Shown: positions 14,777 to 23,997 of the stretch, piece by piece | How positions within the stretch are numbered: the first letter of the stretch is position 1 | How the letters are laid out: each line of letters starts with the position of its first letter | Origin: an uncultured Nitrososphaerales archaeon | GTDB lineage: Archaea > Thermoproteota > Nitrososphaeria > Conexivisphaerales > Conexivisphaeraceae | Direction of reading: 5' to 3' | NCBI GenBank assembly: GCA_964342765.1 | Contig: CAYFFS010000002.1 | Location: 39,125-63,124 of the forward strand | Length of the DNA stretch: 24,000 nucleotides | Position numbers and translations under genes: made by a program | Notes under the pieces: model-generated | Database searches by the model: none | What the model was told of the DNA's origin: nothing | The model's input: only the letters and a program-made list of their open reading frames with translations

Positions 14777-15721
14777 ATGGGATTGCTGAGGCCCAGCAGG
14801 CTCGCCTTCGGCCCCGCGGGCGTTCCCAGGTCCTCCGCCAAGCGCACCACCGAGGCCGGCATCCTGAGGGTCTCGGAGATGGGCCTCGACGCGATGGAGA
14901 TAGAGTTCGTGCGTGGCGTGAAGATGGGGGCGGACTCCGCAGAGCGCGTCAAGGAGGCCGCGTCCTCGGCTGGGATCCTGCTCACCGTGCACGCGCCCTA
15001 CTACGTGAACTTGTTGTCGGACGACGAGGCTAAGGTCAGGGCTTCCGTGGACAGGATATTGAGCTCGGCGCGCGTCGGGCATGCGGCCGGGGCATGGTCG
15101 GTCGTCTTTCACTCGGGCTACTATGGAAAGCTCACGTCCAAGGAGGCCGTGGAGCGCGTAAGGGAGCACCTGCGCGCGATAACGAGGACGCTCAGGGACG
15201 AGGGCGTCGAGATATGGGTAAGGCCGGAGGTCATGGGGGGCCTGGCCGAGGTCGGCGACCTTGACGAGGTGCTCGACATAGTGGATGGATTGGAGGGGGC
15301 GCTGCCATGCCTGGACTTCGCGCACATGTACGCGAGGTCGCTCGGCGCCCTAAACACGCGCGAGTCGATAAGGGAGGCACTCTCGCGCGTGGAATCCCGC
15401 CTTGGGAGGATAGCTTTCGAGAACTTCCACGCGCACATATCGGGTATGGAGTACGGCCCCAAGGGGGAGAGGAGGCACCTGCCGCTCGAGGAGTCCGACT
15501 TTCGCTGGAGGGATGCGCTCGATGCGCTTAAGGAGTTCGACCCCAAGGGGGCGCTGATCTGCGAGTCACCGCTACTCGAGGACGACGCCGTCCTCCTTAG
15601 GGATCATTACCGCGGCTCACGCGCAAGGCGCAAAAAGCGATGGGATGAGCAGCGCGTAAGCCTTGGCGACGTCCAGCATCTCGCTTATGCTGTTCCTCTC
15701 GTCGGCCGCGTGGGCGTATGA
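14777..15721 (+). CDS. Endonuclease IV-like (AP endonuclease family 2 / xylose-isomerase-like TIM barrel) protein
   Basis: Metal-ligand pattern of the Nfo family: TVHAPYYVNL, VVFHSGYYG, VRPEVMGG, CLDFAHMYA, FHAHISG, LICESPL. The last ~30 aa (GSRARRKKRW...) look like a non-conserved tail running into the convergent gene. Confidence 0.7.
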   Translation: MGLLRPSRLAFGPAGVPRSSAKRTTEAGILRVSEMGLDAMEIEFVRGVKMGADSAERVKEAASSAGILLTVHAPYYVNLLSDDEAKVRASVDRILSSARVGHAAGAWSVVFHSGYYGKLTSKEAVERVREHLRAITRTLRDEGVEIWVRPEVMGGLAEVGDLDEVLDIVDGLEGALPCLDFAHMYARSLGALNTRESIREALSRVESRLGRIAFENFHAHISGMEYGPKGERRHLPLEESDFRWRDALDALKEFDPKGALICESPLLEDDAVLLRDHYRGSRARRKKRWDEQRVSLGDVQHLAYAVPLVGRVGV

Positions 15722-16909
15722 TGTATCCCCGGGGCCATAGGTCAGCGCCTCGATGCCGGCCATCTGGAAGTACCTTGTGTCAAGCCCGCCGGGGCAGACC
15801 GTGAGGCTGGGGCCGTTGCCCTTGACCGCCCTTATGGCTTCCGAGAGGGCAGTGGCCAGCCGCCCCCTCGGATCGACGACCGAGGGCGGGGAGCGCGAGA
15901 TGACGCGCATCTCAACCTCGTAGCCCTCCTCCCTTAGGGGGGCGGCCGCCTCCTCGAGCGCGGAGCGGAGCTCAGCCTCCGCGGACTCCAGGTCCTCCTC
16001 CGGTATGAGCCTCCTGTCTATCGTGAAGGAGTAGCGACCCGGCACGACGTTTACCTTCGCCCCTCCGTGGACCTCGCCCCCCAGGTTCACCGTGGGCCTT
16101 GCGCCGCGCGGGTCCTCGAAGGGGTACGAGCTGATGCGCCCCGATAGCCTCCTCGACAGCGCCCCCGAGAGCGCCGCGGCCAGCTTCGCCATGCCCTCGA
16201 ACGCGTTAAGCCCCAGCCAAGGCGTGGAGCCATGGGCCTGCCTCCCCCTTACCTCGACCTCCGCCCACAGGTTGCCCTTGTTCCCTATCCAGACGTTGCC
16301 CGAGCCGCTGGCCTCAGGCACTATCACGTAGTCCGGGGATACCAGGCCCGAATCCACGAGGTACTTGACGCCCGTCTCCCCTCCGGTCTCCTCGTCGGGC
16401 GTGAAGGACAGCTCGATCGACCCGAGCTCCTCCGCGCCTGCCCTGGAGGCAGCGTGCGCAGCCAGTATCGCCGTGGCCATTCCGCCCTTCATGTCGACCA
16501 CGCCTCTCCCGTAGACGATGTCCCCCTCCACCGTTAGCCTGAAGGGATCCCTGGACCAGCCGTCCCCCGGCGGGACCACGTCGTAGTGGGAGTTGAAGTG
16601 GAGGACGGGCCCCTTTGAGCCAAGGCGGGCCAGCACTATATACCTAGGATGATCGGCGTACGCCGGTATGTACTTCTCCAGGTAGCTCCTCGGCACCTCG
16701 ACCACCCTTACGTCATATCCCGAGTCCTCCATGATCTCCTGAAGGGCCTCCGCCATCTCGCCGTAGGACTCCCCAGGCGGGTTCACCGTTGGTATGGAGA
16801 CGAGCTTCCCCAGGACCTCGAGAAGCCTGTCCTTGCCCAGCACCTCTAGGTGATCTAGCAGCCTCTCCCTCAGCGCGGCCTCGTAGGCGCAGGACGGCAT
16901 TCCGTCCAC
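15617..16909 (-). CDS. M20-family metallopeptidase / deacylase (ArgE/DapE/carboxypeptidase type)
   Basis: LVSIPTVNPPGE, VLHFNSHYDVVP, GRGVVDMKGG, FTPDEETGG. The first GTG is at 16909 and the ATG at 16900 (MPSCAYEAAL) is an equally good start. Confidence 0.8.
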   Translation of the reverse strand: MDGMPSCAYEAALRERLLDHLEVLGKDRLLEVLGKLVSIPTVNPPGESYGEMAEALQEIMEDSGYDVRVVEVPRSYLEKYIPAYADHPRYIVLARLGSKGPVLHFNSHYDVVPPGDGWSRDPFRLTVEGDIVYGRGVVDMKGGMATAILAAHAASRAGAEELGSIELSFTPDEETGGETGVKYLVDSGLVSPDYVIVPEASGSGNVWIGNKGNLWAEVEVRGRQAHGSTPWLGLNAFEGMAKLAAALSGALSRRLSGRISSYPFEDPRGARPTVNLGGEVHGGAKVNVVPGRYSFTIDRRLIPEEDLESAEAELRSALEEAAAPLREEGYEVEMRVISRSPPSVVDPRGRLATALSEAIRAVKGNGPSLTVCPGGLDTRYFQMAGIEALTYGPGDTSYAHAADERNSISEMLDVAKAYALLIPSLFAPCA

Positions 16910-16969: not shown

Positions 16970-17075
16970 TGGCGCCGGGGGTGGGATTCGAACCCACACG
17001 GGCTTTCGCCCACAGGCTCTCCAGCCCCTCCATAGGATCTCGAGGCCTGCCCCTTAGCCGCTCGGGCACCCCGGC
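16970..17075 (-). tRNA. tRNA-Ser (anticodon CGA) with a 20-nt intron at 37/38 and an encoded CCA
   Basis: The reverse complement folds as acceptor GCCGGGG/CCCCGGC, anticodon stem CAGGC/GCCTG and loop CT-CGA-G[intron]A. It has a long variable arm (GGGC-GAAA-GCCC), a T arm GTGGG-TTCGAAT-CCCAC, discriminator G and CCA. The intron ATCCTATGGAGGGGCTGGAG is at 17019-17038 and the anticodon at 17040-17042. Confidence 0.9.
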
Positions 17076-17107: not shown

Positions 17108-17158
17108 TTTTCGCCGCATGCGGCGAGGGCCGCCAAGCGAGTCGAAATCGCATAACGC

Positions 17159-17165
17159 GTATATT
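17159..17165 (+). promoter_or_regulatory. TATA-like box of the MacB-type ABC module
   Basis: GTATATT is centred 25 nt upstream of the in-frame GTG 17187. Confidence 0.45.
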
Positions 17166-17186
17166 GAGGCGCCCGCGCGCCGCCAC

Positions 17187-17906
17187 GTGCAGGCTCCCTC
17201 CGAGGAGTTCGCGATATATCTGGAGGAGGTGACCAAGGTCTACAGGGGGGCGGTCCCCACGGTTGCCCTGAACAGGGTCACGCTCGGCGTGAGGCGCGGC
17301 GAGTTCGTGTCGATCGTGGGGCCCTCCGGATCCGGCAAGTCGACGCTCCTGCACGTGATGGGGACCTTGGACAGGCCCACGAGCGGCAGGGTCTACATAG
17401 CGGGGCGCGAGGTCAGCGGCCTGGGGGACGCGGAGCTATCGAGGATAAGGAACCGCTACATAGGGTTCGTCTTCCAGGCCTTCAACCTGATAAACCGCAT
17501 GAGCGTCCTGGAGAACGTCGAGCTGCCCCTCATCGCGAGGGGGATGCGCGCCCAGGAAAGGAGGAGGCGCGCGATGGAGGCGCTGAGGCTCCTGGGGGTG
17601 GACCATCTGTGGGCCAAGAGCCCCAGGTTCCTGAGCGGGGGCGAACAGCAGAGGGTCGCCATAGCGAGGGCCCTCGCCCAGGATCCGGAGTTCATACTCG
17701 CGGACGAGCCGACGGGGAACCTTGACTCCAAGAACGCGGAGGTGGTAATGCGCGCCCTCATGGACGTCAACAGGAGGGCCGGCAAGACGGTGATAATGGT
17801 GACCCACAACATGGAGCTCGCCAACATGACCGACAAGATTTACAGGATAAGGGACGGCAGGATAGAGGGCGTCGAGATCCCGAGGAAGGGGGCGGCTGGA
17901 GAATGA
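17187..17906 (+). CDS. ABC transporter ATP-binding protein, MacB/LolD/FtsE type
   Basis: Walker A GPSGSGKST, Q-loop FVFQAFNL, signature LSGGEQQRVAIARAL, Walker B ILADEPTGNLD. The track start ATG 17118 would put the TATATT box (17159-17165) inside the gene. The in-frame GTG at 17187 lies 25 nt downstream of that box and gives a typical N-terminus (..AIYLEEVTKVYRG). Confidence 0.85.
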   Translation: MQAPSEEFAIYLEEVTKVYRGAVPTVALNRVTLGVRRGEFVSIVGPSGSGKSTLLHVMGTLDRPTSGRVYIAGREVSGLGDAELSRIRNRYIGFVFQAFNLINRMSVLENVELPLIARGMRAQERRRRAMEALRLLGVDHLWAKSPRFLSGGEQQRVAIARALAQDPEFILADEPTGNLDSKNAEVVMRALMDVNRRAGKTVIMVTHNMELANMTDKIYRIRDGRIEGVEIPRKGAAGE

Positions 17907-19549
17907 GGCTTGGGCGCAACCTAGCCCTGGCGCTCGCCGCGGCCATCGTCCTGGCCGCGGCCATCCCGGCATCCGCTCAGGTCCTCACCACGGTGCCCCC
18001 CGTCACGATCTCCTACTACGGGTGGGGCACCCCCTCCTCGCCGATGTATCCGTCGTCCGGCGCGGGCCAGGTCCCCTTCACAGTGGAGGTGGTGACGGCC
18101 CCCACCGGAAGCGGAGCCCCTACGGTCGTGGACTACGCCACGCTTAACCTGACGGGCACGCCCCTGACAAACTCCACGGGGGGTTACATCGTGACCGCGG
18201 CGCCCACGCAGATGTCGTCCAACGTCTACCTGCTGACGTTCTACATACAGATACCGCCGGGCGCTCCCCCGGGCCCTTACAACGCGACCCTGAACGTATA
18301 CTACAGCCAGGCCACGACCACGACGTCCTCGAGCGGCGCCACGACAGTGGTGAACTACTACGTGTACTCGGATAACCTGACGGTGACCGTTTACCAGAGG
18401 CCCTCGGCGTCCGTCGAGGTCCGGGCGCCGGACATCTACGCCGGGGGGATCGGGCAGCTCGTCGTCCTCGTCAACGACACGGGCCCGTTCGCGCTGGACG
18501 ACCTCACCGTGTCCGTGCAGTCCGAGCTACCATTGGTCGGAGGCAACGCCAGCTCCCTGGGTGAGCTGGCTCCCGGATCCTCCGCGGCGTTCAGGTTCTA
18601 CCTGAGCGCGCCGCAGTCGCAGCCCCCCGGCTACTACCCTGTGCAGGTGATAGTAGGCTACTGGAGCGGAGGGGCACAGTACTCCTCCACGTACTACGCG
18701 CGCGTCGACGTCATGTCCCAGGTGGGATCCCTCTACGCCTACGCAGTGCCCTCCACGATACCATATCAGAGGAACGACAGCGTTACCATATACGTGGTGA
18801 ACGGGCTGAGCGGCGCCGTGGGCGACGTGGTCGCGTCCCTGGAGCCCTCGCAGGAGTTCTTCATAGCCCAGGGCTACAGGCAATTCGACCTGGGATCCCT
18901 GCCCCCTGGGTCCTCCTCCGCCATATCCCTGAACGTGATACCCCTGGCATCCTCGCCGGGGCCTTCGAACATCGAGCTCCAGGTGTCATACGTTGACCCT
19001 GAGGGGGTGCAGCGGCAGGCCGTGCTCACGGTCCCCATCTACCTGGAGGGGCTGGCGGACGTGTCCTTCAGCCAGGTCTCTGCCTCGCCGTCCCAGTATG
19101 CGAACTCCGCCGCTCAGCCTTCAGACGTCCTGTTCAACGGATCCATGGCAACCGTGTCCGGGATCCTGCTCAACACGGGCACCGACGAGGCCTACTATGG
19201 ATACGTGTACGTTAACGGCTCGATAGTGGGGAACGCCCAGCCCGAGTACGTCGGCAACCTGCCCACGAATTCGCCCACCCCCTTCAGCGTCTCCTTCTAC
19301 GTGCCGCCCGACGTGGCGCCCGGATTCTACACGGTGCATCTCGCGTTCTCGTACCAGGACGAGCTGGGCAACGCGCACGCCGTCTCCTATCAGCTCTTGG
19401 TCCAGGTCGTGCCGGCCCCGTCGGCCCAGCGCGCGGAGTACGGGCACGGATCCGCCGCGGCCTATGCCCTCACGGCTGTGGTAGTGGCGGTCGCGGTCGC
19501 GGTTTCCGTGGTCGCGGCGCGCCGCCGCAGGAGGGAGAGCCAGGCCTGA
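17903..19549 (+). CDS. Secreted, C-terminally membrane-anchored protein with four tandem beta-sandwich (CARDB / COG1361 S-layer-domain-like) repeats
   Basis: Signal peptide MRLGRNLALALAAAIVLAAAIPASA|Q. Four ~110-120 aa modules each end in a (P)PG-aromatic ... Y motif (PPGPYNATLNVYY, PPGYYPVQVIVGY, SPGPSNIELQVSY, APGFYTVHLAFSY). Nine N-x-S/T sequons. C-terminal TM helix ALTAVVVAVAVAVSVVAA followed by RRRRRESQA. The ATG overlaps the ATPase stop (ATGA). Confidence 0.8.
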   Translation: MRLGRNLALALAAAIVLAAAIPASAQVLTTVPPVTISYYGWGTPSSPMYPSSGAGQVPFTVEVVTAPTGSGAPTVVDYATLNLTGTPLTNSTGGYIVTAAPTQMSSNVYLLTFYIQIPPGAPPGPYNATLNVYYSQATTTTSSSGATTVVNYYVYSDNLTVTVYQRPSASVEVRAPDIYAGGIGQLVVLVNDTGPFALDDLTVSVQSELPLVGGNASSLGELAPGSSAAFRFYLSAPQSQPPGYYPVQVIVGYWSGGAQYSSTYYARVDVMSQVGSLYAYAVPSTIPYQRNDSVTIYVVNGLSGAVGDVVASLEPSQEFFIAQGYRQFDLGSLPPGSSSAISLNVIPLASSPGPSNIELQVSYVDPEGVQRQAVLTVPIYLEGLADVSFSQVSASPSQYANSAAQPSDVLFNGSMATVSGILLNTGTDEAYYGYVYVNGSIVGNAQPEYVGNLPTNSPTPFSVSFYVPPDVAPGFYTVHLAFSYQDELGNAHAVSYQLLVQVVPAPSAQRAEYGHGSAAAYALTAVVVAVAVAVSVVAARRRRRESQA

Positions 19550-20799
19550 ACGCGCTGGAGGCCCTCGCGTTCGCACTCAAGGCGCTCAGCGACAGGAGGA
19601 TAAGGTCCGCCCTCACGATAGTCGGCATAATGATAGGGCCGGCCGCGATAATAGGGATAACCTCGCTCACGGGCGGCTACAGCGCCTCCATACAATCCCA
19701 GCTGCTCAAGCTGGGCACGAACACAATACTTGTCACGCCCTCGAACGGCTATTCGCTCACGCAGCGCGACGTCCAGGTGATATCCTCCCTGCCTGAGGTG
19801 GCCGGGGCCTATCCGTTCTACGACGTGCCCGGCTACATAAACACCCCCGCTGGGAGGGAGGAGGTGAGCGTAATAGCGATAGACCTGCAGGGGCTCGTGA
19901 GGACCCTTCCGGGGCTCCAGCTGCAATCGGGATCCCTTCCCCCGCCCACGGAGGCGGCCGAGGCTGTGCTCGGCTACTACGTCGCGAACCCCCAGAACTC
20001 CCAGATGCCCAAGTACTCGGTCGGCAGCGTCGTCACAGTCAACGTCCTCGCGCCGCAGGGAGCCAGCACCAGGAGCTTCCTGGTCTCGGGCGTCTTCCAG
20101 GAGGTCGGCCCCACGTTCATAGCCGACCTCGACCAGTCGATATTCGTGCCGTTGGCCGCCGGGAGGGAGCTCACGGGCAGCCCTTACTACTCCGGGATCC
20201 TGGTCTACGTGTCGAGCTCCAGCGCGGTCAACGCCACGGAGACCAGGATAAAGGACATCTACGGCAACGACGTGAACGTCCTCTCCACCCAGATGGGCAT
20301 AAGCATAGCCAACACGATAATAGGCTACCTCAACATGCTCCTCGTTTCGGCGGCGGGCGTCTCGCTGCTAGTCGCGTTCGTCGGCGTGACCACCACCATG
20401 TACACGAGCGTCGTGGAGAGGACCAGGGAGATCGGGGTGCTGAAGGCCCTGGGCTTCACGAACAGGGACGTGATGTACCTGTTCCTCGCGGAGTCCGCGC
20501 TCATGGGGCTGCTCGGGGGCCTCGCCGGCCTGGCTCTCGGGGTCGGGGTCGCGTACGCGCTCACGGACCTGATGCCCTACATGCTGGGGGGCGGGGATCC
20601 GCGCGGGGCCGCCCCATCGGCGCACTCCGGCTCGGCGCCGGCCGCCGGGATTTCGCTGGGGCACGTGGCGCCGGCCTTCTCCCCCTTCGCGATGGCGCTC
20701 ACCCTAGCCCTCTCAGTCGCGATAGGGCTCGTGGCCGGCCTCGTGCCAGCGTACAGGGCCGCTAGGATGGATCCCGTGACAGCCCTCAGGTACGAGTGA
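19546..20799 (+). CDS. MacB/FtsX-type ABC transporter permease (apparent non-canonical CTG start)
   Basis: The track ORF starts at ATG 19630, in the middle of TM1. The frame is open upstream and encodes the family-typical N-terminus LNALEALAFALKALSDRRIRSALTIVGIMIGPAAIIG. A large extracytoplasmic domain follows, then an FtsX domain (REIGVLKALGFTNRDVMYLFLAESALMGLLGGLAG...LVPAYRAARMDPVTALRYE). There is no ATG/GTG/TTG in frame between the preceding in-frame stop (which lies upstream of 19297) and 19630. CTG 19546 overlaps the upstream TGA. Confidence 0.7.
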   Translation: MNALEALAFALKALSDRRIRSALTIVGIMIGPAAIIGITSLTGGYSASIQSQLLKLGTNTILVTPSNGYSLTQRDVQVISSLPEVAGAYPFYDVPGYINTPAGREEVSVIAIDLQGLVRTLPGLQLQSGSLPPPTEAAEAVLGYYVANPQNSQMPKYSVGSVVTVNVLAPQGASTRSFLVSGVFQEVGPTFIADLDQSIFVPLAAGRELTGSPYYSGILVYVSSSSAVNATETRIKDIYGNDVNVLSTQMGISIANTIIGYLNMLLVSAAGVSLLVAFVGVTTTMYTSVVERTREIGVLKALGFTNRDVMYLFLAESALMGLLGGLAGLALGVGVAYALTDLMPYMLGGGDPRGAAPSAHSGSAPAAGISLGHVAPAFSPFAMALTLALSVAIGLVAGLVPAYRAARMDPVTALRYE

Positions 20800-20923: not shown

Positions 20924-21205
20924 GTGGTCGGTTCGCCGGCCAAGTCCTACGAGATAGTCGTGATAGGGGACAGGTGTAAGGAGTGTTCTCTCTGCATAAA
21001 CGTGTGCCCGAAGGACGTCCTCGCCAGGGGGCAGAGGATGAACAGGAAGGGCTACAGGGCGACCGTCCCCGTCAAGCCAGAGGCCTGCGTGGGCTGCCGC
21101 GTCTGCGAGTGGGCGTGCCCCGACTTCGCGCTCTTCGTGAGGCCCTCCGAGAGGCCCGTGGGCCGCGTCGTGTGGGCTAACGAGGAGGAGGTGATAGCGC
21201 ATTGA
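20924..21205 (+). CDS. 2-oxoacid:ferredoxin oxidoreductase delta subunit (2x[4Fe-4S] ferredoxin-like)
   Basis: Two cluster motifs, CKECSLCINVCP and CVGCRVCEWACP, in a 93-aa protein directly upstream of the alpha subunit. Confidence 0.8.
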   Translation: MVGSPAKSYEIVVIGDRCKECSLCINVCPKDVLARGQRMNRKGYRATVPVKPEACVGCRVCEWACPDFALFVRPSERPVGRVVWANEEEVIAH

Positions 21206-22371
21206 GCTCCCAGAGGGCCGAGTTCCTCAACTCGAACCAGGCCGTGGCCGAGGGGGCGATGGCCGCCGGCCTGGGAGTGTACGTGGGCTACCCGATAACC
21301 CCGTCGAGCGACATGTTCGAGTACCTGTCCGAGGAGCTTCCGAAGAGGGGCGGCGTGGTCTTCCAGGCCGAGGACGAGATAGCCTCGATAAACGCGCTCG
21401 TTGGGGCCTCCCTTGCGGGCGCAAAGGCGATGACCGCGACGAGCGGCCCAGGGTTCAGCCTCATGATGGAGGGGATAGGCTTCGCTGCTATGGTGGAGGC
21501 CCCCCTGGTCGTGGTGGACGTGATGAGGGCGGGGCCCAGCACCGGAATAGCCACCCAGATAGGGCAGGGCGACATATACCAGGCCAGATGGGGCTCCCAC
21601 GGCGTCTACAACCTGGTCGCGTACGCCCCCGCCAGCGCCCAGGAGGCCTACGAGTACGCGATAAGGGCGTTCAACGCCGCCTACACCGTGAGGACTCCCG
21701 TGATACTCATGACCGATGCCATACTTGCGCACACAAGGGAGAGGGTGGTCCTAAGGGATCCGAACGAGATAGGCATCGTGGGGCGCAAGGTCCCGAAGGT
21801 CCCGCCGGATCAGTACAGGCCCTATCGCCCGGATCCTGAGGACCTGGTCCCGCCGATGGCGTTCTACGGCGAGGGCTACCATCCCATAGCTGAGAGCCTC
21901 TCGCACGATGAGAAGGGCTACTACAAGACCGACGACGAGACCTACCGCGCGCTCGTCTCCCGCCTCGTCAGGAAGGTCGAGGTGAACAAGGGGAAGCTGG
22001 TCGCCTCCAAGTCCTACCACGTCGAGGACGCTGAGATATTGTTCGTCGCCATAGGATCCCTCGCCAGGAACCTGCTGGCCGTCGTGAGGGACCTGAGGTC
22101 CCGCGGCGTGAAGGCCGGGATGTTCCGCCCGATATCGCTCTGGCCGTTCGACGATGAGGCGTTCGTCGCGGCGGCCGCCCGCGCCAAGAGCATAGTGACC
22201 GTGGAGCTCAACCAGGGCCAGCTCTATCAGATAATAAAGGGGATACTGTGGGACAACAGAAAGAGAATAGGGGATCCGGCGATCTACAACCTTGATATAC
22301 CGGTGCCGACGCTCCCGACGCCGGACGAGATATTGGGCGAGATAGAGTCGAGGGGGTGGAAGCTATGGTGA
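21202..22371 (+). CDS. 2-oxoacid:ferredoxin oxidoreductase alpha subunit
   Basis: LNSNQAVAEGAMAAGLGVYVGYPITPSSD..., SINALVGASLAGAKAMTATSGPGFSLM. The TTG start overlaps the delta TGA (TTGA), with GGAGGAGGTGA ending 7 nt upstream. Confidence 0.85.
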   Translation: MSSQRAEFLNSNQAVAEGAMAAGLGVYVGYPITPSSDMFEYLSEELPKRGGVVFQAEDEIASINALVGASLAGAKAMTATSGPGFSLMMEGIGFAAMVEAPLVVVDVMRAGPSTGIATQIGQGDIYQARWGSHGVYNLVAYAPASAQEAYEYAIRAFNAAYTVRTPVILMTDAILAHTRERVVLRDPNEIGIVGRKVPKVPPDQYRPYRPDPEDLVPPMAFYGEGYHPIAESLSHDEKGYYKTDDETYRALVSRLVRKVEVNKGKLVASKSYHVEDAEILFVAIGSLARNLLAVVRDLRSRGVKAGMFRPISLWPFDDEAFVAAAARAKSIVTVELNQGQLYQIIKGILWDNRKRIGDPAIYNLDIPVPTLPTPDEILGEIESRGWKLW

Positions 22372-23231
22372 TGCTTCAGGAGAGGCCCTCGCACCCGCTG
22401 GACGCCTACATGAGGACGGACAGGCTGCCCCACATATGGTGTCCCGGGTGCGGGATCGGGATAGCGCTCCAGCAGTTCCTCTGGGCCGTGAAGGAGCTCC
22501 ACGAGGAGGGGAAGCTCGACCCTAACAAGATAGTCTTCGTGACCGGCATAGGCTGCACCGGTCGCGCCTCAGGCTTCGTGAAGTTCGACTCCGCGCACAC
22601 GCCGCACGGCCGCGCCATACCGTTCGCCGTAGGGGTTAAGCTGGCAAATCCGTCCCTCATACCGGTCGTCTTCAGCGGGGACGGCGACATAGCGTCCATA
22701 GGCGGCAACCACATGATCCACGCGGCTAGGAGGAACTTCGACATGCTCGTTATAATGGTGAACAACATGACCTACGGCCTCACGGGCGGCCAGCTGGCCC
22801 CGACGACGCCGCACGGGATCTACTCCACGACGACCCCGAAGGGGAACCCGGAGGCCCCGATAGACGCCACGAAGGTCGTCTACTCGCTCTCGCCCAACTT
22901 CGTCGCCAGGATGAGCATAACCCACCCCAACCTGATACGCGAGACGGTGAAGAAGGCGCTGCTCATGAAGGGGTTCAGGTGGATAGAGGTGCTCTCCACG
23001 TGCCCGGAGATATTCGGGAGGCACATCAACATGAGGGACCCGTACGAGCTGTACTCGCGCCTGAAGCAGGTCGTGAGGTTCAAGAAGGTGTCGAACGCTG
23101 ACGAGATAAAGTACGACTGGAACAGCGAGATAACCTGCGGCGTCTTCCTGGAGAAGAACAACCCAAGCTACATGGAGAACTACCTGTCCATGTACGGGCT
23201 CAAGGAGAAGCTGGAGGTGTTGGCGCCATGA
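22365..23231 (+). CDS. 2-oxoacid:ferredoxin oxidoreductase beta subunit (TPP-binding)
   Basis: WCPGCGIGIA, TGIGCTGR, FSGDGDIASIGGNHMIHAARRN, NNMTYGLTGGQ. The ATG at 22365 follows GGGGGTGG. GTG 22356 and ATG 22371 are in-frame alternatives. Confidence 0.85.
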   Translation: MVMLQERPSHPLDAYMRTDRLPHIWCPGCGIGIALQQFLWAVKELHEEGKLDPNKIVFVTGIGCTGRASGFVKFDSAHTPHGRAIPFAVGVKLANPSLIPVVFSGDGDIASIGGNHMIHAARRNFDMLVIMVNNMTYGLTGGQLAPTTPHGIYSTTTPKGNPEAPIDATKVVYSLSPNFVARMSITHPNLIRETVKKALLMKGFRWIEVLSTCPEIFGRHINMRDPYELYSRLKQVVRFKKVSNADEIKYDWNSEITCGVFLEKNNPSYMENYLSMYGLKEKLEVLAP

Positions 23232-23761
23232 GCTCCAAGCACGAGATAGTGATCGCCGGAAGGGGAGGCCAGGGAATACTCCTGGCCGGCTACATACTCG
23301 GCAAGGCACTAGTCGACGAGGGGTACTACGTCGTCAACTCGGAGGAATACAGCGCGGAGACCAGGGGAGGCGACTCAAAGGCGGAGCTCATAGTGGCAAA
23401 GGACGAGGAGCCGGACCTCATGACGGTGCAGAGGGCGGACATCGCCGTGTTCATGTACACGGATCAGCTCTCGAAGTACTACAGGCTCGTTGGGAAGGGG
23501 GCCACCCTCGTCCTGGACTCCACCTTCATAAAGGAGGCGCCGAAGGACGCCGGGAAGGTCCTCATGGCCCCCTTCACGGAGGTCGCGGAGAAGCGCGTCG
23601 GCAACATAAGGACGGCTAACATGGTAATGCTTGGCTACTTCGCGTCGAAGGTAGGGCTCGTCGGGATCGACACGCTGGTCAGCGCCATGCGCTCGGTCAC
23701 GAACCCCAATTGGGTCGAGGTCAACGAGAGGGCCCTGAGGACCGGCTACGAGCTCCAGTGA
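23228..23761 (+). CDS. 2-oxoacid:ferredoxin oxidoreductase gamma subunit
   Basis: EIVIAGRGGQGILLAGYILGKA...EEYSAETRGGDSKAELIV. The ATG overlaps the beta TGA (ATGA), with GGAGGTG 8 nt upstream. Confidence 0.85.
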   Translation: MSSKHEIVIAGRGGQGILLAGYILGKALVDEGYYVVNSEEYSAETRGGDSKAELIVAKDEEPDLMTVQRADIAVFMYTDQLSKYYRLVGKGATLVLDSTFIKEAPKDAGKVLMAPFTEVAEKRVGNIRTANMVMLGYFASKVGLVGIDTLVSAMRSVTNPNWVEVNERALRTGYELQ

Positions 23762-23918: not shown

Positions 23919-23997
23919 TGGTAGCGGGGCCAGGATTCGAACCTGGGATCTCGGGGTTATGAGCCCCGCGGGATAGACCTAGCTTCCCCACCCCGCT
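23919..23997 (-). tRNA. Initiator tRNA-Met (anticodon CAT), CCA encoded
   Basis: The reverse complement is AGCGGGG-TG-GGGA...TCCC-G-CGGGG-CTCATAA-CCCCG-AGATC-CCAGG-TTCGAAT-CCTGG-CCCCGCT-A-CCA. The A1:U72 pair and three consecutive G:C pairs closing the anticodon stem are archaeal initiator hallmarks. Confidence 0.9.

Follow-up and report, generated by a model that had tools for sequence, protein, structure and literature searches.

In a 24,000-nucleotide (nt) stretch of DNA from an uncultured Nitrososphaerales archaeon (contig CAYFFS010000002.1, positions 39,125 to 63,124; hereafter the window), three co-directional genes encode an ATP-binding cassette (ABC) transporter system made up of an ATPase, an anchored extracytoplasmic repeat protein and a permease of the MacB/FtsX type. 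The permease gene has a CTG, at position 19546, where its relatives have their start codon. There is good support for codon 19546 being the true start of the permease, and this CTG is probably still translated, standard annotation having cut 28 essential residues off the protein. The features that bear on this are listed here in the order in which they lie, with coordinates counted from the first letter of the window.

17118–17906, plus strand: ABC transporter ATPase, first gene of the operon (Pfam ABC_tran, E = 2e-33), syntenic in all relatives.
17903–19549, plus strand: extracytoplasmic repeat protein of 548 amino acids (aa), with an N-terminal signal peptide, a C-terminal transmembrane (TM) anchor followed by RRRRRESQA, and a weak match to NPCBM_assoc (Ig-like repeat).
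19530–19537, plus strand: Shine–Dalgarno (SD)-like GGAGGGAG, within the RRES codons of the upstream gene and 8 nt before CTG 19546.
19546–20799, plus strand: MacB/FtsX-type ABC permease at full length, 417 aa when read from the CTG.
19546–19548, plus strand: CTG in the place where orthologues start the permease; at base 19546 all close relatives have T, and the window has C.
19547–19549, plus strand: TGA stop of the upstream 548-aa gene, overlapped by the CTG as CTGA.
19549–19629, plus strand: the 27 codons lost by the annotated start, encoding an amphipathic helix (residues 3–16) together with the half of TM1 that lies toward the cytoplasm; R20, T24 and G27, invariant in the family, are among the residues encoded.
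19630–19632, plus strand: ATG of the internal Met29, the first canonical codon and the start of the automated annotation (389 aa).

Walking back codon by codon in the phase of 19630, we reached the preceding in-frame stop at TAA 19213, and none of the 138 codons between that stop and ATG 19630 (19216–19629) is ATG, GTG or TTG. The original prediction, made from the letters of the window, had likewise found no canonical start ahead of ATG 19630; its reading of the frame back to about 19297 without a stop or a canonical start stands that far, with the correction that the frame is open only to 19216. Near-cognate codons in this interval are ATT 19324, ATC 19450, CTG 19546, CTG 19555 and ATA at 19600, 19618 and 19627. 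The overlap of CTG 19546 with the upstream stop as CTGA was as described earlier, with the TGA at 19547–19549, and so was the translation of the 28 codons from CTG 19546 up to ATG 19630, which reads LNALEALAFALKALSDRRIRSALTIVGI. Truncation by automated annotation had also been foreseen, and in a protein database search the deposited product of the gene proved to be a 389-aa protein starting at ATG 19630 (P0001), which covers 93% of the CTG-started query.

The best database matches were the Conexivisphaera calida permeases (79–82% identity) and those of metagenome-assembled genomes of uncultured Conexivisphaera and Nitrososphaeria, which are 401–407 aa long and cover 100% of the query; against such 401–407-aa orthologues the window permease showed 76–82% identity over 100% of its length. 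These proteins begin MNVLEAFTFALKALRDRKVRSALTIIGIMIG, or L... in Joint Genome Institute (JGI) translations. All of the loci that were fetched are syntenic with the window, with the ATPase followed by a surface protein of 516–544 aa, the permease and then oxidoreductase genes. In 11 of 11 syntenic loci of the Conexivisphaera clade (L001–L006, L039–L042 and L096), which represent about five distinct lineages, a TTG stands opposite CTG 19546 and forms TTGA with the stop of the preceding gene, so that alignment with orthologues, the check proposed earlier, places the start at this codon with a 4-nt overlap throughout, and in none of the 11 does the permease start at the Met equivalent to 19630. 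An A-to-C change of an ancestral ATGA had been suggested as one origin of the CTG; the ancestral codon was TTG (TTGA) and the change T-to-C. Comparison of the aligned loci therefore gives good support to an origin of the CTG from an ancestral TTG start by one transition, T to C, at the first base. Base 19546 doubles as the third base of the final sense codon of the upstream gene, where the change turns GCT into GCC (Ala) at a four-fold degenerate site and is silent. It follows the compositional bias of the genome, since the G + C content at third codon positions (GC3) of the window genes is 0.86 and GCC is six times commoner in them than GCT (140 versus 24). In the relatives, nothing but its part in the start codon holds T at this position against the GC bias.

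One public relative was itself miscalled in a more ordinary way. Protein P0021 (387 aa, starting VRSVLT) was called from a GTG inside TM1, and 15 codons before that GTG there is a TTG, itself preceded at 10 nt by GGAGGTGA (L095 1947–2010). We rejected it as a further non-canonical case, since it is an ordinary gene-caller error that shortens the same region for another reason, and it serves as a control.

Read from the CTG, the permease matched Pfam MacB_PCD (PF12704; E = 1.2e-21, residues 21–237, profile positions 1–206 of 207) and FtsX (PF02687; E = 3.3e-22, residues 268–410). Because position 1 of the MacB_PCD profile aligns to residue 21, a start at ATG 19630 (residue 29) cuts into the domain. 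In an alignment of 44 homologues the window permease keeps 30 of 30 invariant residues, three of them (R20, T24 and G27) in the 28-residue segment. An AlphaFold2 model of the CTG-started protein (predicted local distance difference test score of 85.9) has helices at residues 3–16, 18–55, 248–291, 306–347 and 380–406, of which helix 18–55 is TM1 running on into a stalk, with Met29 in mid-helix. Kyte–Doolittle peaks at about residues 21–41, 257–285, 309–340 and 374–405 correspond to four TM helices, and this holds only with a start at 19546. TM1 had been said to be too short without the extension; accordingly, the 19-residue hydropathy maximum was 2.07 (residues 23–41) for intact TM1 versus 1.14 for a protein starting at Met29. 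On these predictions, the product of ATG 19630 would lack a functional TM1.

The protein has the features of a type VII ABC permease, in that it combines FtsX with MacB_PCD, has four predicted membrane passes, the first leading into a large extracytoplasmic domain, and has its cognate ATPase encoded alongside. A Foldseek search with the AlphaFold2 model returned MacB, LolE and 5xu1 at TMq values of 0.61–0.67 (5gko_A, E = 3.7e-22 and TMq 0.67; 5xu1_M, TMq 0.64), and residue 3 of chain M of the Streptococcus pneumoniae structure 5XU1 aligns to residue 6 of the permease, its N-terminus thereby falling about three residues after the CTG position. Its domain content (MacB_PCD plus FtsX) and its topology, with four TM helices of which the first two flank a large extracytoplasmic domain, agree with those of known MacB/LolCE/FtsX permeases (S. 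pneumoniae Spr0695, 5XU1; Acinetobacter baumannii MacB, 5GKO; Escherichia coli LolE, 7ARH). Also in common are a short amphipathic helix ahead of TM1 and an ABC ATPase encoded separately within the operon. Unlike these examples, the window system is archaeal and has a conserved, anchored Ig-like repeat protein of 516–548 aa instead of a MacA-type adaptor. The three-gene module, comprising the ATPase, the signal-peptide-bearing repeat protein with its C-terminal TM anchor in place of a MacA-type partner, and the MacB-type permease, is conserved from Conexivisphaerales to soil Nitrososphaerales.

Selection on the N-terminal segment was examined as the ratio of non-synonymous to synonymous substitution rates (dN/dS) in codons 2–28, 27 codons that do not overlap the upstream gene. 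In the comparison with L004, 8.0 differences are synonymous and 3.0 non-synonymous (dN/dS about 0.10); the ratio is 0.29 against L003 and 0.18 against L001, with 0.15–0.20 for the rest of the gene. By this comparison, the 27-codon segment has behaved as coding sequence through most of the divergence.

The surroundings of the CTG resemble those of other starts in the window. The original prediction had noted GGAGGGAG 8 nt upstream of the CTG and a like geometry at three other genes, all of which we found in place: GGAGGTG lies 8 nt before ATG 23228 and 9 nt before ATG 13973, and GGAGGAGGTGA lies 7 nt ahead of TTG 21202. Measured from the GGAGG core, the spacing to CTG 19546 is 10–11 nt, matching genes 13973, 21202 and 23228. 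Orthologues carry AGGAGG or GGGAGG at the same position, and compared with its relatives the window shows no compensatory strengthening of the SD, AGGAGG being common to L001 and L003. Stops and starts overlap by 4 nt at other junctions in the window as well (GTGA 13239, ATGA 17903, TTGA 21202 and ATGA 23228), and the arrangement expected for termination–reinitiation, an overlapping stop and start in a co-directional gene pair, is seen here as CTGA at 19546–19549 and as TTGA in the relatives.

Termination–reinitiation at 4-nt overlaps has been demonstrated experimentally in an archaeon (PMC6728339; PMC10666635). The ATGA-type coupling of Haloferax volcanii and E. coli (Huber et al. 2019, PMC6728339; PMC10666635) shares with our junction a 4-nt NTGA, co-directional genes for subunits of one complex, and an SD inside the upstream gene at normal spacing; it differs in that the overlapping start here is CTG and the coupling is a putative one. 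The main text of PMC6728339 does not contain the terms CTG, TTGA or GTGA.

CTG was found at start positions elsewhere when distant archaeal homologues (33–39% identity) were screened for loci in which the stretch from the preceding stop to TM1 is free of canonical codons. A peat-soil Nitrososphaerales group has a conserved GGTGA(G/C), then 6–7 nt, then NTG-CGN, and its start column holds TTG in most loci, ATG in L007 and L048, GTG in L058 and CTG in L054 and in L008, L055 and L056; all four NTG variants are thus seen at one conserved start column with a conserved SD. The CTG codons (L008 3001, L055 3001, L056 1138 and L054 2107) lie 7–8 codons past an in-frame stop and follow a GGTGAG SD, and no canonical codon precedes the Met29 equivalent in any of these four loci, in which the surface-protein gene and the permease gene share a frame and are separated by the stop and 6–7 codons only. 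These loci represent two lineages. L008, L055 and L056, which stem from two samples, are 99.9% identical to one another, with 1 nt of 1371 separating L055 from L056, each of a different sample; L054 has only 71% nucleotide identity to this group. In a neighbour-joining tree, the CTG loci, the window included, fall in three separate places.

A similar change is seen one junction upstream. Between the ATPase and surface-protein genes the overlap is ATGA in the window, L001 and L003, GTGA in L004, and CTGA in L002, whose permease is 78% identical to that of the window. This CTGA (L002 1364–1367; 8364–8367 of L094, the same contig) has a conserved SD, GGGGGTGAG, upstream and a signal peptide, LRARPALLALLALLALLAAPRAALAQQ, after it, and no canonical start occurs within the next 30 codons; the JGI call begins at GTG 1454 of L002 and gives a 516-aa surface protein without the signal peptide. 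More distantly, ACG occupies the permease start column in Ca. Terraquivivens tengchongensis (Caldarchaeales; L011 2995) and in a matching metagenome contig (L070 2998), 7 codons past a TAG and directly after GGGGGAGAAGGAG, with no ATG, GTG or TTG until inside TM1; it is possible that this ACG is a start codon, or that it is something else.

When about 250 kb of fetched loci was scanned, crudely, for NTGA junctions, 19 had T, 17 G, 11 A and 10 C in the first position. Counting as credible those CTGA junctions that combine an SD with a conserved, protein-like N-terminus and lack a canonical start close by, we retained two of the 10 (window 19546, and L094 8364, which is the L002 junction) among some 45–50 plausible NTGA overlaps; the other candidates were set aside at the level of the scan, having a canonical start 3–8 codons downstream or being seemingly off-frame open stretches in GC-rich DNA. 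In L094 we also observed (15665–16360), after a TrpB-like gene (PALP, ending at 15668), an uncalled TrpA-like frame, VIAYLTIGYPTPELF, open for more than 120 codons. It begins with a CTGA on the trpB stop and has a GTG 4 codons downstream, so that its start is ambiguous.

The explanation that accounts best for these data, and which we consider reasonably likely, is that the permease of a three-gene MacB-type ABC system, in a relative of Conexivisphaera (Nitrososphaerota), would be started at CUG by SD-assisted termination–reinitiation. Ribosomes would terminate the surface-protein gene at UGA 19547–19549, be held by pairing of the 3′ end of 16S rRNA with GGAGG(GAG), 8–11 nt upstream, and reinitiate on the overlapping CUG with the ordinary initiator tRNA (anticodon CAU), the C:U mismatch at the first position being tolerated much as the U:U mismatch may be at the UUG starts heavily used by the clade. 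This would yield a permease of 417 aa, begun with Met and complete in TM1, probably at a slower rate than UUG would allow. Nothing other than start-codon function opposed the T-to-C change at 19546. We infer use of CUG because CTG recurs, once in replicate, at conserved start columns of intact genes; because all of the non-canonical codons found at the start column are near-cognates with a single mismatch; because the SD and the 4-nt overlap, an arrangement that supports termination–reinitiation in archaea, are intact; and because the clade relies on UUG, already a pyrimidine:pyrimidine first-position mismatch with CAU. CUG initiation or termination–reinitiation had been put forward as the simplest reading from the start, and the orthologous start position speaks in its favour. 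Three things expected of a CUG start are found here: no canonical codon before the conserved N-terminus, alignment with the orthologous start and its SD, and coding-like evolution of the 27 codons that follow.

Prokaryotic precedents exist. In Deinococcus, N-terminal proteomics identified CTG starts for RpsL and Deide_03051 (PMC2830850); the CTG start of the E. coli plasmid protein RepA is among those cited in PMC2830850; and in Methanosarcina mazei about 5% of novel small open reading frames detected by ribosome profiling start with CTG (PMC11456600). The documented CTG starts (PMC2830850, PMC11456600) have in common with ours a near-cognate NUG at a conserved start position that gene callers miss, and a case built on conserved residues upstream of the first canonical codon. 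They differ in that the Deinococcus rpsL CTG is conserved across its clade whereas the window CTG, a putative start, is derived in one genome, against TTG in all close relatives, and in that the window gene is a full-size membrane-protein gene of a Nitrososphaerota archaeon.

Several observations weigh against CUG initiation. Retention of TTG in all 11 of the closest relatives argues for CTG being disfavoured. The C at 19546 is unreplicated, the protein forming a cluster of 1 and scans of genome and metagenome contigs returning nothing above 85% identity. The N-terminal dN/dS against L002 is high (0.31/0.41), and estimates from 27 codons are noisy. The consulted reviews of archaeal initiation name only AUG, GUG and UUG (PMC7531240, PMC4705826), and in the literature searched we found no reporter measurements of CUG initiation in archaea. 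Finally, a very recent start-loss mutation would leave an identical, intact and conserved-looking gene.

This last point leads to the alternative that survives best, although we judge it unlikely: a recent loss of function, in which a real T-to-C change abolished, or nearly abolished, the permease, leaving a young pseudogene or a non-functional fragment from Met29 that has had too little time to decay. In line with it, CUG is generally a poor initiator in prokaryotes (background in PMC2830850), TTG has been retained by every one of the 11 relatives, and a pairwise dN/dS integrates the whole divergence and is blind to a recent event. On the other hand, CTG in place of a start codon in three other places (L054, the L008 group and the L002 junction), with the genes intact, is hard to square with a null allele, and there is no other lesion in the permease or in the rest of the operon.

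Less probable again is a base-call, assembly or consensus error, by which the organism would have TTG and the C would have come in as an artefact or as a minority allele that the assembler chose. The sequence of the window is unreplicated in every collection searched, and an error classically shows itself as one deviating base at a site where the relatives do not vary. Real substitutions relative to the relatives are, however, abundant (proportion of synonymous differences about 0.4–0.5) and far outnumber the consensus errors to be expected; the change runs with the mutational and compositional bias of the genome (GC3, as above); and the identical change has been replicated in another lineage, in independent assemblies from two samples (L055 and L056).

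Initiation at some other non-canonical codon further downstream is improbable to a greater degree. Candidates exist in frame, and the product of ATA 19600, M-RSALTIVGIMIG..., would keep a complete hydrophobic TM1 and lose only the amphipathic helix. Nevertheless, neither ATA 19600 nor CTG 19555 is at the conserved orthologous start; AGGAGG directly abuts ATA 19600 (0 nt) and CTG 19555 lies 17 nt from the SD, as against 7–9 nt in functional genes here; and residues 2–18 are conserved and under purifying selection.

That the annotated ATG 19630 is a real and sufficient start of a 389-aa protein we regard as highly improbable: it is the first canonical codon and the start of the public protein P0001, but it falls in the middle of predicted helix 18–55, removes the three invariant residues R20, T24 and G27, leaves TM1 below the hydropathy threshold, has no SD ahead of it and is an internal Met in every orthologue, all of which start 28 codons earlier. 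A programmed −1 frameshift fusing the anchored surface protein to the permease, the fusion alternative of the original prediction, was dropped as scarcely credible, for while the two frames do differ by −1 and the topology of a fusion would be compatible, the X XXY YYZ heptamer already reported missing does not occur in the zero frame of the doubly open interval 19213–19549 (the only homopolymer being CCCCC at 19278), the frame-1 translation upstream of 19546 is an Arg/Gly/Ala-rich off-frame sequence, and all orthologues have a separate, SD-preceded TTG start of their own at the junction.

The rest of the window supplies context for the operon. The surface-protein gene begins at 17903 with an ATGA overlap on the ATPase stop, and its synteny is kept in all relatives. 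For the ATPase itself, GTG 17187 is probably the start rather than ATG 17118, because orthologues start 22–26 codons 3′ of 17118, in alignment with GTG 17187, and the extension of about 23 codons is unconserved. Four genes for 2-oxoacid:ferredoxin oxidoreductase subunits lie 3′ of the permease (20924–23761). One of their reading frames, at 21202–22371 (389 aa), was considered as a paralogous permease and rejected, as it encodes the pyruvate/2-oxoacid:ferredoxin oxidoreductase alpha subunit and is of no use for the start question. Near the end of the window, just past the oxidoreductase operon, lies a tRNA gene:

23919–23997, minus strand: initiator-type tRNA-Met with a CAU anticodon (ARAGORN and Rfam).

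It has the hallmarks of an initiator, namely A1:U72, three G:C pairs (GGG/CCC) closing the anticodon stem and an encoded CCA, and its normal CAU anticodon led us to reject an altered initiator tRNA; the reading of CUG would fall to this tRNA. Rfam also found a 103-nt tRNA at 16973–17075 on the minus strand (45 bits), missed by ARAGORN, directly upstream of the ABC operon and divergent from it; it probably contains an intron and has a long variable arm, and its anticodon region, CTCGAGA, possibly makes it Ser-CGA.

We see the case as one more probable instance of a near-cognate CUG start at a translationally coupled junction rather than as a system of a new kind. For the permease, the deposited 389-aa protein is without the amphipathic helix and half of TM1 and would be mis-modelled as a three-TM fragment; the same kind of annotation error also affects the surface protein of L002, which loses its signal peptide. 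As base 19546 is silent in the upstream gene, the junction offers a natural experiment on start-codon identity when initiation is coupled to upstream termination. Beyond this locus we suggest, tentatively, that in SD-using archaea of the TACK group (Thaumarchaeota, Aigarchaeota, Crenarchaeota and Korarchaeota), namely Nitrososphaerota and Caldarchaeales, SD-led internal cistrons that are translationally coupled may place almost no constraint on the first base of their start codon, and that CUG, and perhaps ACG, could be rare functional starts that persist through speciation, helped by GC-biased drift at the four-fold site of NTGA overlaps. If this is true, gene callers limited to ATG, GTG and TTG would systematically truncate such genes, losing signal peptides or first TM helices. 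The presence of CTG at conserved start columns in several independent archaeal lineages suggests that the start-codon set of archaeal gene finders is slightly too narrow for SD-dependent, GC-rich TACK archaea, and it is this recurrence of CTG (and ACG) at conserved TACK start columns that is worth following up.

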